Below are positions 1,692 to 55,905 of a stretch of 64,000 nt of DNA, piece after piece. Made by a program: the position numbers and the translations under genes. This DNA comes from an uncultured Gammaproteobacteria bacterium (GTDB taxonomy: Bacteria > Patescibacteriota > Microgenomatia > UBA8517): positions 6,709 through 70,708 of the forward strand of contig CAZIMC010000002.1 in NCBI GenBank assembly GCA_964540475.1. The letters run 5' to 3'. The notes beneath the pieces were generated by a model. It was not told the DNA's origin. It searched no databases and was given only the letters and a program-made list of their open reading frames with translations. How positions within the stretch are numbered: position 1 is the stretch's first letter; every line of letters starts with the position of its first letter.

Positions 1692-4600
1692 CTATTCTTC
1701 CGCCGAGTCTAGGTCAATTACCCACCAATTAAATTCCACATCTACATCAAGAACGTTGCTAAAGCCTACAATGAAAAAGCCTTCGCCCTTGGCTTTTACA
1801 TATAGTACTCGGTTTTTTGTCGTAGAGGTGGGAGTTACATAGACTAGGGTTTTATCACTGACGTTTTCGTTTCTTACGATAATTTCATTAAGGCCGGCTG
1901 CGACAGTTGCTTTTCCGGCGGATGCATTACTTTCTATGATTTGTTTTGTGGCCAGGGAGGCAGAGGGGCTAGCAATATCGGCCGCAATAATGAGTTTTTG
2001 GGTCTGAACTTGTCTGAATTCAGCAGAACCGGAAGCATCGATTGCTGCATCGGTCCCAAAGAATGCATTCTGTGCATGGATATTTCCGGTTAAGTATAGA
2101 TTGCCAAAGATTTCTACATCACCATTTGTGTTTATTCTTACCTTACCTGCCATAAGGTCGATTGGAGCAAGAGCCAGGGATTGTAGTGATAAGGGAGCAA
2201 AAAGAGTATTAATACTATTGTCCTGTGAACTTATTACCATATCCGTACCGAAGGCTAGTGAAGTAGAAACTGACATACTGAAAAAAGCCGCCTGATCTGT
2301 AACAAAGAGGTGGTTGAGTGATAAGCTTGATAAATTGTTATATGTAGAATCAAGGTTGTTGTCGGTTGCAACCTCGTCAGTACCCACTTCAGTGGTTTGT
2401 GCCAATCCAGACAGAAGTTTTTGATTAAATTCTATCTCCTTCAGTAGATTTTCGATCTCCAATATTTTCTCCTTGGTAAGACCATCTGGGCTTTCAACAA
2501 AATTTGCAATAACCCTGTCAGCATAAATTGTTCCCGCAATTGTGGCGTCGTTACTTACTGCTAACTGGTTACTGTTTACAGTTCCGGAAAGTGTCGCGTC
2601 GGCTGCGGATATGCTACCCGCAAAATAGGCGTTACCCCGTGTGTCTATGCTAGATACCTCCACTTGGTCAGTATTTTGAACTACAAACCTTGACTCAGGC
2701 TCTAGTTCAGAAGATTCCAATCTGACTACCAAATCCTGACCACTGTTGGGGGTTATGAGTGCTGTTTTAACACTTGGCGTAACAAGACCGGAGGAAATAA
2801 GCAGATTATCAACTGTTGCCGTTGCTATATAAGAAGACTCGGCCACTAATTTTTTTGTCACCAAAGTTCCCGCAGTTATATTGGTGGTTATGATATCCAG
2901 AGCAATCAGGCTTTCTTCAATCGCTATTTTGGTTGCGGTGATTGTGCCAGCCTTAATGTTCTCAGCAATAAGATTCGCCGCAACCACGCTTGCAGCGATT
3001 ATCTTTTCTGTGAATATGTGAGAGGAAGCTATCACTCCCTTTTCCACCTTCTCATCCAGCTCCTGAACTGCTTTTACTAATGGGACTACTAAAGACGCAT
3101 AATCAACCCCCTTTATATCGTGAGCTATATATTGGACTGCTTCCGGGAAAACATTTTCTACATTTTGGGCAATAAGCCCTAGATTGCTTCGTTGGTTTCG
3201 TGTGGGATCTATCCAGCTATAAGTAACTGCTTCCAAAGACTTAATTTTGGTTAGAGCATCCTCCACGGGTGCAATATTTTGCTTAAGCCTGGAATCCGAG
3301 GCACAAGTAACTCCAGCCCCATCTCCAATTACGCAAGTTGTTCCCGAACCATAAAAATATGCATCTCCGTTATTTTTTATTTCGAACTTTGTCTCACCGG
3401 CTACCGAGGCGGTTAGGGGAGAGTTACTCCCAGTTTCATTAAAGACAGCCAGTGCAATGCTTTGTGTGGCAGTTCCCTCTATTGTGATCGGGTTTAGAAA
3501 GCTGGAAGTTGCTCTTATAGTAAAGTTGTTCTCGATTGAATTTCCCAAAGTCACATTTCCGTTTGCCTTGAATGTTTCGCCAACTGTCAGGTTATCTCTT
3601 ATTAATACATTACCTTTGGGAACATAGATGGCATAGGAGTCAGGCAAACCACCACTTCTTGTTACCACCAAAGTGTTAGTTGCAGAACCCGCTTCCTGTT
3701 CAATCTCATTTAGATCAAGAACTAGAAGGTCGGATGTGGAGGGGTTCATATCCTTTGTTATATTTTTACGTATTAAAGCATAGTCGTCAGCCAGTTGATT
3801 TATTTCAAACCGCCCCTGGGTTTGGTTATAGCCGGTAATATTTGCCAGCCCGCCACCGCTATCGAAGCGAACACTTTCTCCAATTCTCAGATCTCCAGTA
3901 AGGTTGACATCAAAAACTCCTAGGATGCTACCAGCCATACTCGTGTTTCCATTAGCATCGATTTGAAACTTCGTTTCGGGATCTGACCCGGTTTGGAATA
4001 CTAAGAGATCGTATGTACCACTGTCGTTGCCAACATATCCATAAAATAAGCTTCCGGAATTAAGATTTGCCGCTGCAGCTCCAAATAGATTACCTTCTTC
4101 ACCCTCTAAAATAACATTCAGTTTACCCTTCCCATCTGGGTTTAACGTAATATCACCGTCCGAAGCATCAGGGGTTGACAGAACGAGTTCTTGCCCTTGA
4201 AGAAGAAGGGCTTGATCGCTTACAATTCCGGGAGCATCACCTTCTAATTTGATTACACCTGCCTCAGAATAAACCCTAGTAAGCGCTTCTTGGTATGCAC
4301 CCAAAACACTTGTAGACCCAGACGGTATTTGCTCAGAGCTTAGGATGTCTTCAGGTAGAGTGGGTGTTGGCGTGAAGAAATTTTCGTTATCAAGGAGTAT
4401 AATTCCGGTTCCAACAATCAGCACCAAAACCCCGCCGCTAAAAAGAGCCTTAAATAAGCTTGACGCCTTTTTCCTGCTTTCCGGAAATACCACTGTGGCT
4501 TGTGGTGTAAGCTCAGGTTTAATTACCGCGTCTCTTGCGGTTATTTGAAGTGTAATGTGATTTTTTCGTGCCCAATCTAGGAACTTTTTGATGGACACGG

Positions 4601-5165
4601 CTTTTCGTTGGGCGGTCGAAGCAGAGAAGCTGTTTTCAAGATATGCCCTGTAAGCTGTAAGCGTCCCCTCTGATACTTTCAGATGACCCAGCCAGGCGAG
4701 GAAGTGGCGCACATCCGAAACGTAATTTTTAATTGTATTTTTAGAAACACGAAGTAGAGTTAAGTGGGTCTTAAAGCTGCCGATAATGCTCTCAAAGTCG
4801 TTTTTGTGCGGCAAGACGCTTAGGTTTTGTAGTCCTTGCGTAAAATCTGTATCCACCAACTGTCTGTTTACCAAAAATCGGGACAAAGCTCTTAGGGTTG
4901 AAAGTCTCCGGTTTATGGTTTTAATGGGGGTGTTAAGTGTAAGTAAGTGCTGCTTGTAATCCTTTGATATGTTTGGGTGTATAAAGGGAATACTTTCAGT
5001 AAAACTGTCTACAAAGACGCCATCCTGTCTTATTTTGTCAACAAACCACTGGGCGAAATGGTTTGCGTCCGACTTGTAATTTTTAAGTGTCATAAAACTT
5101 CTACCCGAGTTATCCAAGTCGAGGATAAAGTTTGTTAGTGTGGGGTCAATTGCTGAATTTTTCAT
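1692..5165 (-). CDS. Giant membrane-anchored surface protein. It has two N-terminal tyrosine-recombinase-type core-binding (SAM-like) domains, one TM helix, a beta-rich fibre-like ectodomain, and an internal Peptidase_S74 (intramolecular chaperone / autoproteolysis) motif.
   Basis: 1157-aa ORF. N-terminal repeats LKNYKSDANHFAQWFVDK and IKNYVSDVRHFLAWLGH resemble the phage-integrase N-terminal SAM-like domain. TM helix GGVLVLIVGTGIILL. SDSRLKQNIAPVEDALTKIKSLEAVTYSWID...GLIAQNVENVFPEAV matches the S74 self-cleavage consensus. Confidence 0.7.
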   Translation of the reverse strand: MKNSAIDPTLTNFILDLDNSGRSFMTLKNYKSDANHFAQWFVDKIRQDGVFVDSFTESIPFIHPNISKDYKQHLLTLNTPIKTINRRLSTLRALSRFLVNRQLVDTDFTQGLQNLSVLPHKNDFESIIGSFKTHLTLLRVSKNTIKNYVSDVRHFLAWLGHLKVSEGTLTAYRAYLENSFSASTAQRKAVSIKKFLDWARKNHITLQITARDAVIKPELTPQATVVFPESRKKASSLFKALFSGGVLVLIVGTGIILLDNENFFTPTPTLPEDILSSEQIPSGSTSVLGAYQEALTRVYSEAGVIKLEGDAPGIVSDQALLLQGQELVLSTPDASDGDITLNPDGKGKLNVILEGEEGNLFGAAAANLNSGSLFYGYVGNDSGTYDLLVFQTGSDPETKFQIDANGNTSMAGSILGVFDVNLTGDLRIGESVRFDSGGGLANITGYNQTQGRFEINQLADDYALIRKNITKDMNPSTSDLLVLDLNEIEQEAGSATNTLVVTRSGGLPDSYAIYVPKGNVLIRDNLTVGETFKANGNVTLGNSIENNFTIRATSSFLNPITIEGTATQSIALAVFNETGSNSPLTASVAGETKFEIKNNGDAYFYGSGTTCVIGDGAGVTCASDSRLKQNIAPVEDALTKIKSLEAVTYSWIDPTRNQRSNLGLIAQNVENVFPEAVQYIAHDIKGVDYASLVVPLVKAVQELDEKVEKGVIASSHIFTEKIIAASVVAANLIAENIKAGTITATKIAIEESLIALDIITTNITAGTLVTKKLVAESSYIATATVDNLLISSGLVTPSVKTALITPNSGQDLVVRLESSELEPESRFVVQNTDQVEVSSIDTRGNAYFAGSISAADATLSGTVNSNQLAVSNDATIAGTIYADRVIANFVESPDGLTKEKILEIENLLKEIEFNQKLLSGLAQTTEVGTDEVATDNNLDSTYNNLSSLSLNHLFVTDQAAFFSMSVSTSLAFGTDMVISSQDNSINTLFAPLSLQSLALAPIDLMAGKVRINTNGDVEIFGNLYLTGNIHAQNAFFGTDAAIDASGSAEFRQVQTQKLIIAADIASPSASLATKQIIESNASAGKATVAAGLNEIIVRNENVSDKTLVYVTPTSTTKNRVLYVKAKGEGFFIVGFSNVLDVDVEFNWWVIDLDSAEE

Positions 5166-5737: not shown

Positions 5738-8659
5738 ATGGTGAGCAAAAATATTACCTACGATCATAGGTCAGTTGAGGCTAGATGGCGGGATTACTGG
5801 GACAATTCAGGACTATACAAAACTGATCTGAATGCTTCGAGGGGACGTTTTTACAATTTATGGATGTTCCCGTATCCTTCCGGGGAGGGTCTACATGCCG
5901 GGCACGCTTTTGCTTCAACAGGTAGCGACATTTACGGCCGTTTTATGAGAATGAAAGGTAGAGAAGTGTTTCAGCCAATCGGCTACGACTCATTTGGCAT
6001 TCATTCTGAAAATTTTGCGATCAAGACAGGTGAAACGCCTCAAATAATGCTTACACGCACAACTAAGCACTACGAAGCACAGTTAAGAAGCCTGGGCCAC
6101 GGCTATGATTGGAGTAGAGTGTTGAGTACTTCTGATATAGATTATTATAAATGGACACAGTGGCTATTTGTCGAAATGTTTAAGGCTGGCCTTGCATACA
6201 AGAAAAAAGCTAGCGTTAATTATTGTCCTTCGTGCAAGACGGTGTTGGCAGACGAGCAGGTAATGACGCCAAAGCAGGCTGGGAAAGAACCCAAAGACGC
6301 AAGGGGTAATAGGGTTTCTGGAACTGATGATACCCGAGTTTGCGAGCGATGTGGTACGGTGGTCCAAAAAAAAGAATTGGATCAGTGGTTTTTTAGGATT
6401 ACCGACTATGCAGACCGGCTACTTTCTGGTTTAGATAAAATTGATTGGAGCGAGCGCGTTAAGATTGCTCAAAGAGAGTGGATAGGGCGGTCCGAGGGGC
6501 TTCGGATCCAATTCCAAATTACAAATTCCAAATTACAAATTCCGGTGTGGACTAAGTTTTGGGAAACAATATATGGGGCTACTTTTCTGGTTGTTGCACC
6601 CGAATACGCACAAAACGAGCTTGTCCACTTGATTCCCCAGGAAAATAAAAAGAAAGTTCTTGAATATATCAAAATGTCTCTTAGTAAGTCAGAACAGCGG
6701 AGGAAAGAAGAGGCAAAAGAAAAAACCGGAGTGTTTACAGGAATTTACGCTGTAAATCCGGCAAATGGTCAAAAGATCCCTGTTTGGGTTACCGACTATG
6801 TGTTATTGGGTGTTGGAACGGGTGCTGTAATGGGAGTTCCTGCGCACGACAAGCGCGACTTTGAATTTGCAAGAAAATTCAACTTGAGACTTCTCCCTGT
6901 TGTCAAACCTAAAGATAGCGCATATAGAAGCTATTTGATGGGTGCAAAAGATATATCAGATAAAGATCTGGAAGATATCAAAGTAATGCTTGTCGAGACC
7001 GATAAAGACGGAGACAAAAAGCTTATCATACCTTCGGATTCACTTGCTGAATATAAAAAGCTTATAAAAGAGAAGTTAGACTTTGGATTTTGGAATGAAG
7101 TGGTGGGAGATACTGTATGGTTTTGCTTTAAAGATAAAACTGGTAATACAACAGAATATATATTATCAGAAAATAATATGTCAGAAATTGCTAAAAAATG
7201 TTCTGAGTTTAACAACGATCCGCTTGAAAAAACAGAGAACCTGTGGCTCTATTTAGCAGAGAATGATTGGTATCAGCCACTCATTGTTCAAGAAAATGGC
7301 GGGGAGTTAATTAACTCAGGGCGGTTTGATGGCATGTCCGCCTGGGGAGAGGGTAAGAAAAAGATGGCTGAGTGGATGATTAAGGAAAGTTTTGCCGAGT
7401 GGAGCACGACTTACCATTTACGAGATTGGTTAGTAAGCAGACAGCGCTACTGGGGGCCTCCGATTCCAATGATCTACTGCCCGAAATGCGCCAAGGAGGG
7501 CAGGAGCTGGCTTAGTCAAAATGAAGCTAACGTTAGGAAAGATCAGACAGACTGGACTCATGCGGGTTGGTACCCTGAAGAAAATTTACCTGTCATCTTG
7601 CCAGAAATGGATAACTATCAGCCCTTAGGTACCGGCAAAAGTCCTTTGGCATCTGTGCCTGATTTTTATGAGGCTAAATGTCCTTACTGTGATGGCGATG
7701 CTACTCGCGAGACAGATGTTTCAGATACATTTGTTGATTCCGCGTGGTATTTCTTAAGATATCCGAGTGTTAATGCAGAAAGTAATAGTAAATTACCCTT
7801 TGATCCAGGAATAACAAAGAAATGGTTACCAGTTTCACTATACTTTGGCGGTGCCGAACATTCAGTGCTGCATTTGATGTATGCCCGTTTTGTAACAATG
7901 ATGCTTTATGATTTGAAGCTAGTTGATTTCGAGGAGCCTTTCCCGAAGTTTTTTGCCCACGGTTTAATGATCAAGGACGGTGCAAAGATGAGTAAATCCA
8001 GAGGAAATGTGGTTAACCCGGATGAGTATATTGAAAAATATGGCGCAGACACCTTGAGACTTTACACCATGTTTATGGGGCCAATGGATGGATATCCGGA
8101 TTTTCGTGACAGTGGGATTGAGGGCATGAGGAGATTTATTAATAAGGTTTATAAACTTTTCGGTGAAGCATTGGTGGAGGAAGAAGCGAATGAAGTAATC
8201 ACAAAACTGCATCAAACCATAAAAAAGACTACCGAAGATATTCAAGGTTTTAGATACAATACCGCAATTGCGTCAATTATGGAATTGGTAAATCTTATCC
8301 AGGTCAAAGGTACTTCAGAAAATACACTAAATGTACTAGCCAGACTCCTGGCGCCATTCACCCCGCACTTAGCCGAGGAATTATGGCAAGAAGTGTTGAA
8401 GCAGAGCGGGTCAGTTCACAATGCAAGCTGGCCAGAACACAATCCTGAATTGATAAATGTGGATCAAGTTGAGCTTGTAGTTCAGGTAGACGGAAAAGTT
8501 CGTGCCCAATTAATGGTAGGCATTAATCATTCCAAGGATCGTGACTTTGTATTCGATTTAGCCAGAAGGGAGCCTAAAGTCGTTAAATGGCTAGAGGGTA
8601 AAGAGGTCAAAGATGAGATATTTATTCCTGAAAAGCTCATTAACTTTGTTACTAAATAA
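5738..8659 (+). CDS. leuS: Leucyl-tRNA synthetase
   Basis: HAGH (HIGH) motif near the N-terminus and KMSKS motif (KMSKSRGN), 973 aa, class I LeuS architecture with editing insertion. Confidence 0.95.
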   Translation: MVSKNITYDHRSVEARWRDYWDNSGLYKTDLNASRGRFYNLWMFPYPSGEGLHAGHAFASTGSDIYGRFMRMKGREVFQPIGYDSFGIHSENFAIKTGETPQIMLTRTTKHYEAQLRSLGHGYDWSRVLSTSDIDYYKWTQWLFVEMFKAGLAYKKKASVNYCPSCKTVLADEQVMTPKQAGKEPKDARGNRVSGTDDTRVCERCGTVVQKKELDQWFFRITDYADRLLSGLDKIDWSERVKIAQREWIGRSEGLRIQFQITNSKLQIPVWTKFWETIYGATFLVVAPEYAQNELVHLIPQENKKKVLEYIKMSLSKSEQRRKEEAKEKTGVFTGIYAVNPANGQKIPVWVTDYVLLGVGTGAVMGVPAHDKRDFEFARKFNLRLLPVVKPKDSAYRSYLMGAKDISDKDLEDIKVMLVETDKDGDKKLIIPSDSLAEYKKLIKEKLDFGFWNEVVGDTVWFCFKDKTGNTTEYILSENNMSEIAKKCSEFNNDPLEKTENLWLYLAENDWYQPLIVQENGGELINSGRFDGMSAWGEGKKKMAEWMIKESFAEWSTTYHLRDWLVSRQRYWGPPIPMIYCPKCAKEGRSWLSQNEANVRKDQTDWTHAGWYPEENLPVILPEMDNYQPLGTGKSPLASVPDFYEAKCPYCDGDATRETDVSDTFVDSAWYFLRYPSVNAESNSKLPFDPGITKKWLPVSLYFGGAEHSVLHLMYARFVTMMLYDLKLVDFEEPFPKFFAHGLMIKDGAKMSKSRGNVVNPDEYIEKYGADTLRLYTMFMGPMDGYPDFRDSGIEGMRRFINKVYKLFGEALVEEEANEVITKLHQTIKKTTEDIQGFRYNTAIASIMELVNLIQVKGTSENTLNVLARLLAPFTPHLAEELWQEVLKQSGSVHNASWPEHNPELINVDQVELVVQVDGKVRAQLMVGINHSKDRDFVFDLARREPKVVKWLEGKEVKDEIFIPEKLINFVTK
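6509..6544 (+). repeat. In-frame tandem repeat (about 14-nt unit caaattccaaatta x2.5) inside leuS, encoding IQFQITNSKLQIP.
   Basis: ccaattccaaattacaaattccaaattacaaattcc read directly from the sequence. Confidence 0.8.
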
Positions 8660-16040: not shown

Positions 16041-16138
16041 CTATCTTCTAGGGAGGAAAGCAGAGCTTGGCCATTATCAAGGCTAATGGTAAGGAAACCT
16101 TAGCCATTCTCAGTAGAGAATGGTAAAATACATCTTAA

Positions 16139-21367: not shown

Positions 21368-22642
21368 GTGGGTACTAAATTAAGCCTGCCAAAAGGCACA
21401 CAAACACCCAATCACATAGCCATTATTCCAGACGGGAACAGGCGTTGGGCCAGGGCTCGCGGCCTTCATACGCTAAGGGGACACAAAAGAGGCTTTGAAG
21501 CTGCTGTCAAAATTGGTAGGGCAGCACGCGATTTGGGGATTCACACCATCACTCTCTGGGGGTTCTCGACCGAAAATTGGGACAGGGATAAATCAGAAGT
21601 TGACTACTTAATGCGCCTGTATGTAAAGCTAGTGGACGACTATTTAAAAGAAGCAATGGAGAACAAGGTTAAAATAGTACATTTAGGAAGAAAGGATAGG
21701 CTACCAAAATTCCTTTTAAAAAAGCTTTCATACGCAGAAGAAAAGACAGCCCATTTTGACAAATTTATAATGAATATCGCCATAGATTATGGGGGGCAAG
21801 ATGATATTATTCGAGCAGTAAAGGCCATGATTGCAGAAGGGGTGAGTGGGGATGAAGTGGAAAAAGAACTGTTTGACAGATTTGTAGATACAAAAACCCA
21901 GCCATATCCATATGTAGATTTAATGATCAGGACTTCGGGCGAGCAACGCACAAGTGGGTTTTTATTATGGCAATCTGCATATACTGAGTATTATTGGGAG
22001 AGAGAACATTTCCCGGATTTTACTCCTGAAAAGTTTAAAGAGGCGATAATGGATTACTCACGGAGAAGAAGGAGGTTTGGTGGTAACGATGCCGTTGAGC
22101 ACTTTACATTTAAACCGGAAATTGCTGCTAAGTTTGAGCTTGCGTGGTGGCGTCTTGCTAAAATCCCGGAAGGAACAAAGTTCGTTGACTATGCAGTTAA
22201 CCATTTAAAGGAGCAGTACGGCCTTAGCAAGAAATTTGCTAAAGAGGCGGCTAAATTAATGCTCGAGGCAGCACTTCATGAAGAAGATGACAAATGGGAG
22301 AAAGCTAGAATCAAGCTTAAGAAGTTCTACGGCATAATTAAAGAGGAAGTTCAGCTTGCGTTTGAGCCGGAACTGGTCGCTCACCTAGAAGTTAAGTTAA
22401 GGCGGGAGATTGAAGGGAAAACTGAAGTTGAGGGGGTCGGGGAAGCTGAGGAGACTGCAAAAAGCTTATACGCAGAGGTTTACAGGATTTCGCTTTTCCA
22501 GGCTGCCAAACTGGCGCACCTTCGAGTTTTGGCTTCAGTTGAGCGTAATTTAGCAAGACGGGGTTTTGGAGATCATCATTGGGACCGCGCTCAGGACTAC
22601 CTCGAAAAATTCTACTATGCGCTGAAGGAACGCGTAGCGTGA
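21368..22642 (+). CDS. uppS: Undecaprenyl-diphosphate synthase (cis-prenyltransferase) fused to a helical K/E-rich C-terminal extension of about 200 aa. The start is uncertain. The ORF is open from 21218 but overlaps the NUDIX gene; a GTG at 21368 is proposed.
   Basis: HIAIIPDGNRRWA and MIRTSGEQRTSGFLLWQSAYTEYYW UppS motifs. The extension carries RRRRRFGG and has no recognisable domain. Confidence 0.75.
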   Translation: MGTKLSLPKGTQTPNHIAIIPDGNRRWARARGLHTLRGHKRGFEAAVKIGRAARDLGIHTITLWGFSTENWDRDKSEVDYLMRLYVKLVDDYLKEAMENKVKIVHLGRKDRLPKFLLKKLSYAEEKTAHFDKFIMNIAIDYGGQDDIIRAVKAMIAEGVSGDEVEKELFDRFVDTKTQPYPYVDLMIRTSGEQRTSGFLLWQSAYTEYYWEREHFPDFTPEKFKEAIMDYSRRRRRFGGNDAVEHFTFKPEIAAKFELAWWRLAKIPEGTKFVDYAVNHLKEQYGLSKKFAKEAAKLMLEAALHEEDDKWEKARIKLKKFYGIIKEEVQLAFEPELVAHLEVKLRREIEGKTEVEGVGEAEETAKSLYAEVYRISLFQAAKLAHLRVLASVERNLARRGFGDHHWDRAQDYLEKFYYALKERVA

Positions 22643-22752
22643 CGACTGCGCAGAGCCAAGCTACGCTTACCACGCACTCAAAGAGAGAGTTGCTTAAAGA
22701 TAATGCGTGGCCAAGCTCTGCTTACTATGCGCTGAAGGAACGAGTAGCCTAG
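22613..22752 (+). repeat. Direct repeat of the uppS 3' terminus (30 bp, synonymous variants only) flanking an insert of about 80 bp. The insert carries two copies of the GGCCAAGCT(NN)GCTTAC motif and a tRNA-Thr-5'-end-like fragment.
   Basis: tactatgcgctgaaggaacgcgtagcgtga occurs at 22613-22642 and tactatgcgctgaaggaacgagtagcctag at 22723-22752. Motif copies at 22654-22670 and 22707-22725. Confidence 0.8.
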
Positions 22753-40961: not shown

Positions 40962-41158
40962 TTTTACATTAAAAAAGGCACCATCGAGGTGCCAAAATCT
41001 AGTGCCTAGTTTCTACCGGTGAAACCGGCCAAGCTTAGCTTATTGCCTAGTGCCTAGTTTTTTACCCTCGGTACGACTTATGAATGCGTACTGTCTTCGG
41101 ACAACTGTTAATATATCAAAACTCTAATATAAACGCAAATACGCCAAATACCCTAAAC
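40962..41158 (-). promoter_or_regulatory. rplJ 5' leader region (expected L10(L12)4 autoregulatory leader). It contains a hairpin and one copy of the GGCCAAGCTTAGCTTA motif.
   Basis: ggcaccatcgaggtgcc hairpin. Motif at 41026-41041. Confidence 0.4.
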
Positions 41159-55296: not shown

Positions 55297-55431
55297 TTAT
55301 CATATTGGCAGGTAGTAAAGCAGTAAGTTGATAATGTTGAGGCAAGCCTGCTTACGCAGGCAGGAATACGCCTTAAAAAACTATTCCATCTTGGCACTAT
55401 CGAACCTAAGCTCAAAGCACAAGTTTTCGTG

Positions 55432-55529: not shown

Positions 55530-55605
55530 TGGGAGCCGTCTTAGGGACTCGAACCCTAGACCTGCTGTTTACAAAACAGCTGCTCTACCACTGAGCTAAG
55601 ACGGC
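55530..55605 (-). tRNA. tRNA-Thr (TGT), CCA encoded
   Basis: Acceptor GCCGTCT/AGACGGC, anticodon loop TTTGTAA, T-loop TTCGAGT. Confidence 0.75.
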
Positions 55606-55679
55606 TAAGTTCAAAATGCTCGGTGGCCAAGCTTTGCTTACCACTGAGCTAAGACAGCAACGTTTTGGAAATTATACCA
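55606..55679 (-). repeat. Leader of the tRNA-Thr(TGT) transcript. It contains the GTGGCCAAGCTTTGCTTAC motif, a duplicated 17-nt copy of the tRNA-Thr 5' end (one mismatch), and the tRNA promoter -10.
   Basis: Motif at 55623-55641. ccactgagctaagacAgc at 55641-55658 against the tRNA's ccactgagctaagacGgc at 55588-55605. -10 ggaaattatacca at 55667-55679, reverse complement TGGTATAAT. Confidence 0.75.
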
Positions 55680-55905
55680 AAAATGGGGCATTCCGTGAAG
55701 CTAAAATGGTTTTGCCAAGGAATGACCCTGCTTCAGGATCGAGCAAACTTTCCTGGAAAATCCAGGTGGGTGAGCTGATTTTAACCCCACGGGGCCAAAA
55801 TACTTCGCCCTCCCAGTAAACTCAACTAGTCAGGAGAGTTTACCTCGAATCCCTTTAAACAGGGTCATATATATTCTAACAAAGCGGGTCAAGCAAATAA
55901 AAGCA

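Follow-up and report, generated by a model that had tools for sequence, protein, structure and literature searches.

Small dispersed hairpin units, probably mobile and bearing captured gene ends, at a tRNA-Thr(TGT) gene and across candidate-phyla-radiation bacteria

Among described elements, the closest kind to the one considered here is that of the short palindromic repeats represented by the repetitive extragenic palindromic (REP) sequences and the REP doublet-forming hairpins (REPINs), both mobilised by REP-associated tyrosine transposases (RAYTs), and by the Rickettsia palindromic elements (RPE). The element is a hairpin unit of 24–34 nt, one copy of which lies between the tRNA-Thr(TGT) gene and its promoter in a 64-kb stretch of contig CAZIMC010000002.1, hereafter the window. 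Like the unit, REP/REPIN and RPE are palindromic repeats of 20–40 nt with a conserved tag at one end and a high copy number, they stand beside stop codons and terminators, they are clustered, and some copies lie in frame within open reading frames (ORFs) (PMC3733652; PMC3116915). As short dispersed imperfect palindromes, the roughly 210 unique units described below fit the definition of REP. They differ from REP in their tag, which is GTAG (or CGTC) in REP, whereas the unit ends in GTAAGC (the reverse complement of GCTTAC) and GTAG is seen here only in the tRNA D-loop target. Moreover, the main stem of the unit, H1, is variable and consists partly of target sequence, its invariant part being a second mini-hairpin, and it carries replacement gene ends, a cargo that is no described feature of REP. 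Genomes with REP/REPIN also possess a RAYT gene, typically flanked by REPs; none was found in the window or in 970 kb of motif-bearing loci, the DNA that one IS200 probe and Pfam on 50 ORFs covered.

Insertion sequences (IS) of the IS200/IS605 family and their miniature derivatives, the palindrome-associated transposable elements (PATEs), share with the unit insertion 3′ of a short specific sequence without obligatory target duplication, hairpins at the ends, and an element end that resembles the target. IS608, for instance, inserts after TTAC. The unit is ten-fold smaller than these elements, lacks their strand bias relative to GC skew, and no TnpA or TnpB protein was detected with a single IS200 probe in the 970 kb. 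In MITEs (miniature inverted-repeat transposable elements), the terminal inverted repeats match a parent IS, and the target duplication is fixed in length; the unit has no terminal inverted repeats, and the length of its duplication varies. Similar in size are the small dispersed repeats (SDR) of Nostoc, which Elhai et al. reportedly described in 2008 as mobile, some 21–27 nt long and far smaller than MITEs; they belong to a different phylum and differ in sequence. The unit itself has no family in Rfam and no sequence match in the searchable literature, and the hairpin repeat family has apparently been undescribed until now.

At the tRNA-Thr(TGT) locus, the 19-nt motif GTGGCCAAGCTTTGCTTAC lies at 55623–55641 on the plus strand, and the sequence directly after it (CCACTGAGCTAAGACAGC, 55641–55658) is the reverse complement of nucleotides 1–18 of the tRNA, with one mismatch to the real copy at 55588–55605. 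With the TA that both share, the repeat comprises 20 nt, 19 of them identical. The first-pass annotation of this DNA had noted such a near-exact 18-nt copy of the tRNA 5′ end between the gene and its promoter, an observation that is confirmed. The functional gene occupies 55534–55605 on the minus strand (Rfam tRNA, 73.1 bits; ARAGORN 55530–55606 including CCA). Read along the plus strand, the unit starts after a TA (55586–55587), the reverse complement of D-loop nucleotides 19–20, which marks its left boundary at a YTA^ site (carets mark junctions throughout). It continues with segment X (55588–55605), the reverse complement of tRNA nucleotides 1–18, which is contiguous with the remaining tRNA and contributes its initial 9 nt (CCACTGAGC) as the 5′ arm of H1. 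The H1 loop (55606–55617) doubles as the leader directly 5′ of the functional tRNA (TAAGTTCAAAAT) and is followed by the 3′ arm GCTCGGTGG (55618–55626), complementary to CCACTGAGC through eight Watson–Crick pairs and one G.T pair, and by the core CCAAGC-TTT-GCTTA (55627–55640), a 4-bp mini-hairpin (AAGC/GCTT) with a variable triloop. Beyond the core lies X′ (55641–55658), the displaced copy of tRNA nucleotides 1–18 (C3>T), 12 nt from the extended −10 box TGGTATAAT (55671–55679, minus strand), which was recognised from sequence only. The sequence CCACTGAGC occurs in both X and X′, and both of the alternative hairpins are predicted. The displaced copy and the motif thus sit between this putative promoter box and tRNA-Thr(TGT), and to judge from the layout the box must drive X′, the unit, tRNA-Thr and tRNA-Tyr together.

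In the window the motif occurs three times at up to three mismatches, against 0.06 expected, and a relaxed search for its core adds copies at 22655, 41028 and 16056. Motif-bearing and related contigs are designated below by L numbers (such as L001 and L148); the motif-bearing loci amount to 970 kb, and the units come from about 1 Mb of DNA from the candidate phyla radiation (CPR). A scan for the exact motif in species-representative genomes (one per species) returned 22 loci, about 17 of which come from metagenome-assembled genomes (MAGs) of Woesebacteria, Microgenomates or Patescibacteria; several bear the label "uncultured Gammaproteobacteria" and share this gene content. In nearly all of these the 5′ end of a tRNA stands 10–28 nt away, and its copy comes after the motif; loci with this arrangement number about 17 of the 22. 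The search across the genome and its relatives on which the first-pass annotation had made its reading depend was therefore positive, and metagenomes added at least 120 loci, viral sequences two. The window fits this host range, its UppS protein being 70–78% identical to Woesebacteria proteins, and among its genes are ordinary housekeeping ones, ComEA and ComEC included.

Comparison of the copies revealed that the 19-nt motif is the conserved right part of the unit, which reads YTA ^ variable hairpin H1 ^ CCAAGC-NNN-GCTTA or, in full from the alignment of all occurrences, (T/C)TA ^ CC-arm ... loop ... arm-GG ^ CC AAGC NNN GCTT A ^ C(CA). The 14-nt core CCAAGCNNNGCTTA is an invariant 4-bp mini-hairpin with a free triloop, and the predicted folds are H1 plus H2 or an alternative long hairpin. 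A total of 209 unique cores from the Woesebacteria/Microgenomates DNA was analysed; 189 have an upstream H1 hairpin that ends at the core, and TTA or CTA stands immediately before the hairpin in 93 of these 189, where chance would give about 3%. Units with an H1 stem of at least 4 bp and a loop of at most 9 nt, termed simple (n = 66), have self-complementary arms of 4–8 bp, YTTA on the left, and a right flank that begins with C in 57 of the 66, then CC, then CCA, with no duplication beyond these nucleotides. The occupied site therefore reads TTA^CCA, or TGG^TA on the other strand. Both the YTA before the hairpin and the C, CC or CCA at most are features of insertion 3′ of a fixed sequence without target duplication, as in the IS200/IS605 family.

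The TGG^TA pentamer is present in the tRNA D-loop (GGTAGAG), in the extended −10 box of these organisms, TGGTAWAAT (TGGTATAAT, TGGTAAAAT), and in terminator tails. Correspondingly, units are found in tRNA D-loops, extended −10 boxes and terminator tails, and in a few ORFs as in-frame inserts. Many of the simple units directly adjoin a TAAAAT box located upstream of a tRNA (for example L016, L017 and L055), where the terminal TGG of the unit restores the extended −10 box. In the window, two units, one with a decayed core, stand on the minus strand at 16056–16123, directly upstream of the −10 box TGGTAAAAT (16121–16129) of tRNA-Arg(CCT); in plus-strand coordinates their cores are at 16056–16070 and 16090–16103 and their H1 hairpins at 16071–16089 and 16104–16123. 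A simple unit, CTA ^ CCGGT-gaa-ACCGG ^ CCAAGCTTAGCTTA, lies at 41013–41042 on the plus strand. It is flanked by a 14-nt direct repeat, CTAGTGCCTAGTTT (40999–41012 and 41047–41060), the left copy of which lies upstream of the YTA site, a geometry unlike that of the gene-end cases.

Where YTA lies inside a gene near its end, units are seen solely in a cargo-carrying form. In it, the 5′ arm and the loop of H1 consist of the gene end and a few nucleotides of flank, the 3′ arm is complementary to the gene end, and an older copy stands beyond the core. Seventy-six unique units are linked to tRNAs, lying antisense-upstream at no more than 200 nt from a tRNA 5′ end; 48 of them have a gene-end copy that extends from a TA to position +1 of the tRNA, in 21 tRNA species altogether. 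The copy starts at the D-loop TA (18–20 nt) in 42 cases and at a TA at positions 8–9 (7 nt) in six; it is identical to the tRNA in 39 of the 48, and in 40 of them the similarity ends 0–2 nt from +1, beyond which the flanks of the two copies are unrelated. Arms of up to 17–18 nt match each individual tRNA, and the two nucleotides before GGCC co-vary with the D-loop (GTGG/CCAC, TTGG/CCAA, ATGG/CCAT, GCGG/CCGC). The 3′ ends of a tRNA-Gly (L111) and of uppS follow the same boundary rule in sense orientation; hence the boundary is the functional gene end, not a fixed stagger or a run-off end. The duplicated segment accordingly varies in length (0–5, 7, 18–20 and 28 nt) and stops at gene boundaries. 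The targeting of a gene end, as the first-pass annotation had put it, applies to these tRNA and uppS ends as a special case, since most copies of the element (the 66 simple units) have no gene-end copy.

The uppS locus of the window (22613–22752, plus strand) had been named in the first-pass annotation as a second instance of the same unit, and it does have the architecture of the tRNA-Thr locus, in fact with three gene-end copies and two cores. The first module (22613–22669) comprises TA (22613–22614), the functional end X (22615–22642, stop TGA), arm 1 (22646–22655) and core 1 (22656–22669). The second (22670–22724) contains a divergent allele, X″ (22670–22697, (Y)HALKERVA, stop TAA), the tetranucleotide AGAT, arm 2 (22702–22710) and core 2 (22711–22724). 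The most distal displaced end, X′ (22725–22752, (Y)YALKERVA, stop TAG), then leads into the native flank. At a spacing of 55 nt the gene thus ends three times, as YYALKERVA, YHALKERVA and YYALKERVA, with the stops TGA, TAA and TAG. The middle copy is changed at 11 of 30 nt, and eight of these changes affect third codon positions. When as many mutations were placed at random, none of 200,000 sets kept its peptide, and for X′ the fraction was 0.00175. Because the peptides are retained beyond random mutation and ALKERVA before the stop is the conserved C-terminus in all Woesebacteria homologues examined, the three stacked ends, in which only synonymous changes are kept, are to be read from their sequences as alleles shaped by selection in some genome and not as decayed local duplicates. 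In addition, the X″ allele with its AGA flank is the most distal, now frameshifted, copy in L148, as expected if X″ originally belonged to a donor lineage as its native end and was then captured and moved.

The arms of this locus also establish how the unit is to be parsed. Arm 1 pairs with X at 8 of 10 positions and with X″ at 4 of 10, and arm 2 pairs with X″ at 8 of 9 and with X′ at 5 of 9 (hand count from verified coordinates). Since each arm pairs with the copy upstream of it, the coherent module consists of the gene end, a few nucleotides, the arm and the core, and it is the upstream copy, not the downstream one, that belongs to each module. A module of arm, core and downstream copy was rejected at uppS on the same pairing and may still hold for some tRNA cases. 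The unit had initially been described as a spacer, the 19-nt motif and a copy of the adjacent gene end, with similar spacers at the two loci. The association with the adjacent gene-end copy stands; the real order is YTA ^ copy, loop and arm (H1) ^ core, and then the older copy, and there is no shared spacer, the 3′ part of each being an arm complementary to its own gene-end copy (GCTCGGTGG at tRNA-Thr, AATGCGTGG at uppS). The initial interpretation is thus partly supported, as to a recurrent, identical and gene-end-linked unit, and was wrong in its parsing.

Several observations speak of movement. Units of a given H1 family turn up at different loci, in different flanking sequence (11 units in nine loci in one case, eight units in seven loci in another). 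Units form tandem arrays with periods of 23–34 nt and nested arrangements, such as A-B-B-A in L029, as would be predicted for units able to insert after the TTA of other units, and their copy number varies between otherwise identical contigs (L030 versus L075; L034 versus L136). Within an ORF for a membrane protein (L034, 6322–8637), three 30-nt units at 7713–7786 stand in frame and add GQALLTQPLR repeats; arrays are also translated at ORF 5′ ends in L029 and L078. Moreover, orthologous sites differ in occupancy. The tRNA-Thr(TGT) site is empty in L022 and L030/L075 and occupied in the window, L001, L027, L138 and L142, and the uppS site is empty in L145 and occupied in the window, L147 and L148. 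These are the true empty sites; tRNA-Thr(GGT), earlier proposed as one, does not qualify because its D-loop, GGCAGAG, lacks the GG^TA site. In L147 (2250–2330) the uppS end is duplicated (..EALKERVA and ..EALKERVT, each before a stop), and the 15-nt degenerate core-like spacer between the copies, GAAGACTCGCTTTCC, is possibly a decayed unit.

We consider it probable that the feature at tRNA-Thr(TGT) represents one copy of a REP/MITE-like mobile hairpin repeat, dispersed and non-autonomous, that has captured gene ends and spreads between CPR lineages of the Woesebacteria/Microgenomates type. This reading builds on the anatomy of the unit, its site preference, its arrays, its presence and absence at orthologous sites, the co-variation of arm and gene end, and the allelic stacked ends. 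According to it, the module at 55588–55640, placed in the D-loop site of tRNA-Thr(TGT), would supply tRNA nucleotides 1–18, and the older copy at 55641–55658 would be left beside the promoter; transcription from TGGTATAAT would then traverse the older copy as well as the element, with RNase P trimming the product to a normal tRNA. An enzyme acting in trans would cut and join at the hairpin feet, and the analogy with IS200/IS605 (IS608) and REP/RAYT suggests an HUH/Y1-type single-strand transposase. Gene ends could be captured when the 3′ arm pairs with YTA-adjacent sequence in a neighbouring gene, whereby a longer segment would be mobilised; the tRNA D-loop CTCTACCAC mimics the usual left junction TTTTACCAC. 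Occupied alleles may spread between lineages either by inserting anew at the cognate site or through DNA uptake followed by homologous recombination, and the ComEA and ComEC encoded in the window count in favour of the uptake route.

A number of points weigh against this explanation. The window has 153 TACCA/TGGTA pentamers, of which only about 5 bear a unit, and the site motif alone is therefore insufficient. Four tRNA cases (L142, L098, L130 and L040) have a displaced copy of another allele, unfit for the 3′ acceptor strand of the functional tRNA, which calls for whole-gene replacement or recombination beyond simple insertion into the D-loop. No IS200-like ORF was found in the 970 kb with the single probe, and Pfam detected no transposase, Cas, TnpB, reverse transcriptase (RT) or Nop-domain protein among 40 window ORFs and 10 array-flanking ORFs. 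The orientation of the units is unbiased with respect to local GC skew (39 positive, 40 negative), unlike that of IS200/IS605 elements, and G.T and A.C mismatches in the stems are equally frequent (16 versus 18), so neither strand is singled out as the active one. Finally, the model gives no account of the origin of the 9–18-nt arms complementary to each target. No recurrent neighbour protein of the unit emerged beyond housekeeping clusters and GIY-YIG and LAGLIDADG-like ORFs. The latter, small GIY-YIG ORFs of about 95 aa and LAGLIDADG-like ORFs with an LYWAEGSK motif, lie between tRNA genes, with no fixed position relative to the unit, in L020, L039, L055, L069, L083, L089, L095, L102, L139 and L144.

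It is conceivable, at rather long odds, that the arm and the gene-end copy together form a built-in homing device. The unit would then be a minimal selfish module of about 50 nt that brings a spare end for an essential gene together with sequence that base-pairs to this gene, so that it replaces gene ends under nucleic-acid guidance, as DNA or RNA, possibly read by a CPR protein of the Nop/RuvC type, such as a nuclease-dead TasR.

Alternatively, the unit could be a vertically inherited, cis-acting RNA structure in the pre-tRNA leader or in the 3′ untranslated region of an mRNA, controlling processing, stability or transcription, for instance with the tRNA 5′-end mimic as a decoy for the anti-tRNA arm. 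Its position between promoter and tRNA and the stable hairpin predicted for it agree with this, and the identity of the displaced copy in 39 of 48 cases, next to an imperfect arm, hints at constraint on X′. We nonetheless regard such a role as unlikely, as the unit also occurs antisense to tRNAs, in sense orientation at the uppS and tRNA-Gly 3′ ends, in ORFs and after terminators, and is present or absent at orthologous sites. Furthermore, the pairing shows no preference for G.U over A.C, the predicted folding of the minus, tRNA-sense strand does not surpass that of shuffled sequence (z = −0.12), and Rfam has no such family.

Slightly less likely still is that the units are orphan guide-RNA modules of an RNA-guided DNA-binding system, either the nuclease-dead TasR of TIGR-Tas (TIGR standing for tandem interspaced guide RNA) or a handle plus guide resembling crRNA or omega-RNA. 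In this case the core would serve as scaffold and the arm and X′ as guides directed at the tRNA gene, with the module regulating or marking the gene beside it. Outside viruses, TIGR stem-loop arrays have CPR bacteria as their only hosts, the dead TasR proteins of these bacteria are repressors, and CPR tigRNAs place a short hairpin between two spacers of 9–10 nt (bioRxiv 10.64898/2026.09.09.750476). The unit shares this host group as well as the short tandem arrangement and a small hairpin between two segments, arm and X′, that match opposite target strands; its UGG^CCA and UUA^CCA junctions resemble box D (UG) and box C (CCA) (PMC12045711), and the copy is 18 nt long and starts right after the conserved core. 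However, TIGR spacers are two non-overlapping segments of 8–12 nt, flanked by boxes C and D, that show no mutual co-variation and jointly specify the adjacent halves of one 18-bp target (PMC12045711), whereas arm and X′ are mutually complementary and overlap, covering one set of tRNA positions. The units are also too short: the self-complementary 4–8-bp arms of the 66 simple units leave no room for two spacers of 8–12 nt. TIGR-Tas arrays adjoin a Tas gene with a Nop domain, and no Nop domain or tas gene was found among the 40 window ORFs or the 10 ORFs flanking the arrays examined. Likewise, units stand in frame inside unrelated ORFs, and the copies stop exactly at gene boundaries and differ synonymously only, as expected of gene alleles and not of guides.

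In CRISPR arrays, regular repeats alternate with foreign spacers and accompany cas genes; the "spacers" here are palindromic or copies of adjacent genes, and the window has no cas. Two related candidates were dropped. A cyanobacterial origin, with a homing crRNA of a type V-K CRISPR-associated transposon (CAST), was rejected in view of the Woesebacteria-type CPR host, and the motif is presumably unlike Cas12k repeats. A Cas12a-like 19-nt handle plus guide was set aside because simple units lack any target copy.

Integrative elements, which are kilobases long, encode an integrase, carry an attP copy of a tRNA end and replace the 3′ end of the gene, suggest a further reading, namely that the repeats are attachment-site scars of larger elements that integrated at tRNA and gene ends and have since lost their bodies. 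Such elements resemble the gene-end units in that the functional gene keeps an intact end, the older copy is displaced and the copies may be different alleles, and direct repeats of tRNA ends are their classic signature. The window also has an ORF with a phage-integrase domain, and the 3′ end of tRNA-Thr is duplicated in L022. Scars are nevertheless very improbable: only 35–55 nt separate the repeats, and at over 200 sites this stretch invariably ends in one and the same 14-nt core, mostly the 5′ and not the 3′ end is duplicated, no integrase is adjacent, and simple units have no gene-end duplication at all, a picture that does not match att sites. The ORF in question (1692–5165, minus strand, 1157 aa) has, besides its phage-integrase N-terminal SAM-like domain, a domain of the Peptidase_S74 (endosialidase chaperone) type. 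In L022 (2559–2640, minus strand) the final 19 nt of tRNA-Thr(TGT) recur 50 nt downstream of the gene, the intervening insert holding GGTTCAATAGTGCCAAGC; the similar sequence GGTTCGATAGTGCCAAG comes after tRNA-Tyr in the window (about 55375–55400). Chance similarity, local slippage or an assembly artefact, to which the shortness of the repeats and the TGGTA microhomology at their junctions might point, is effectively refuted by the three motif matches against 0.06 expected, the recurrence in dozens of independent assemblies and 21 tRNA species, and the purely synonymous changes of the uppS copies.

Some narrower proposals were rejected as well. A fixed-length target-site duplication does not fit lengths of 0–5, 7, 18–20 and 28 nt that track gene boundaries. 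Run-off reverse transcription of mature tRNA, considered for the sharp +1 boundary, fails on the tRNA 3′-end and uppS stop-codon cases, which share the rule in sense orientation. The displaced copy was not made from the arm by template switching, as X′ matches X and not the complement of the imperfect arm, and the core is no −35 element, its spacing to TAAAAT being only 13–14 nt and variable.

The surroundings of tRNA-Thr(TGT) hold further features. Directly upstream of its promoter, the window contains a weak match to 6S RNA (55721–55868, minus strand; RF00013, 34.4 bits, under the gathering score of 46.4, E = 2.6e-5), and the 6S-like region is kept upstream of tRNA-Thr(TGT) in L022, L030, L075, L138 and L142. 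Two loci have nested tRNA-Thr(TGT) genes (L034, 11708–11945; L027, 6666–6950), the outer tRNA being split after the anticodon, between positions 36 and 37. Inverted repeats (CCCAGTACA / TGTACTGGG) bound the insert, which is 164 nt in L034 and longer in L027. Inside it are a hairpin, a GTAAAAT box and, complete, a second tRNA-Thr(TGT) that represents another allele; in L027 this inner gene also bears the hairpin unit. The insert may be intron-like or represent a mobile cassette of a tRNA. With regard to the hosts, nine records titled "uncultured Gammaproteobacteria bacterium" (L001, L002, L005, L009, L011–L013, L018 and L020) carry the CPR-type unit, and at least L001 and L020 have genes orthologous to those of the window, such as an M50 peptidase beside tRNA-Thr. 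Mislabelling of CPR MAGs is the probable explanation for these nine.

Very small mobile hairpin repeats are already known as a kind, and what is new here is the portable replacement gene end. The gene-end form would be a way for an element to live inside an essential gene by bringing a spare end, and the stacked fossil alleles would record past transfers. If the homing reading were true, a module would invade tRNA and housekeeping genes without killing its host and spread between lineages, for which there is no described counterpart. An enzyme that recognises the mini-hairpin and the target-paired arm, if found, may represent a new small site- or guide-directed DNA-joining activity. In practical terms, the repeats make long structured pre-tRNA leaders and in-frame peptide inserts (GQALLT...), and they can mislead gene callers, tRNA finders and CRISPR or TIGR array finders. 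CPR genomes are tiny and thought to be poor in mobile DNA, and a 30-nt family in their promoters, tRNA genes and ORFs would amount to hidden genome dynamics and provide a marker of gene flow.

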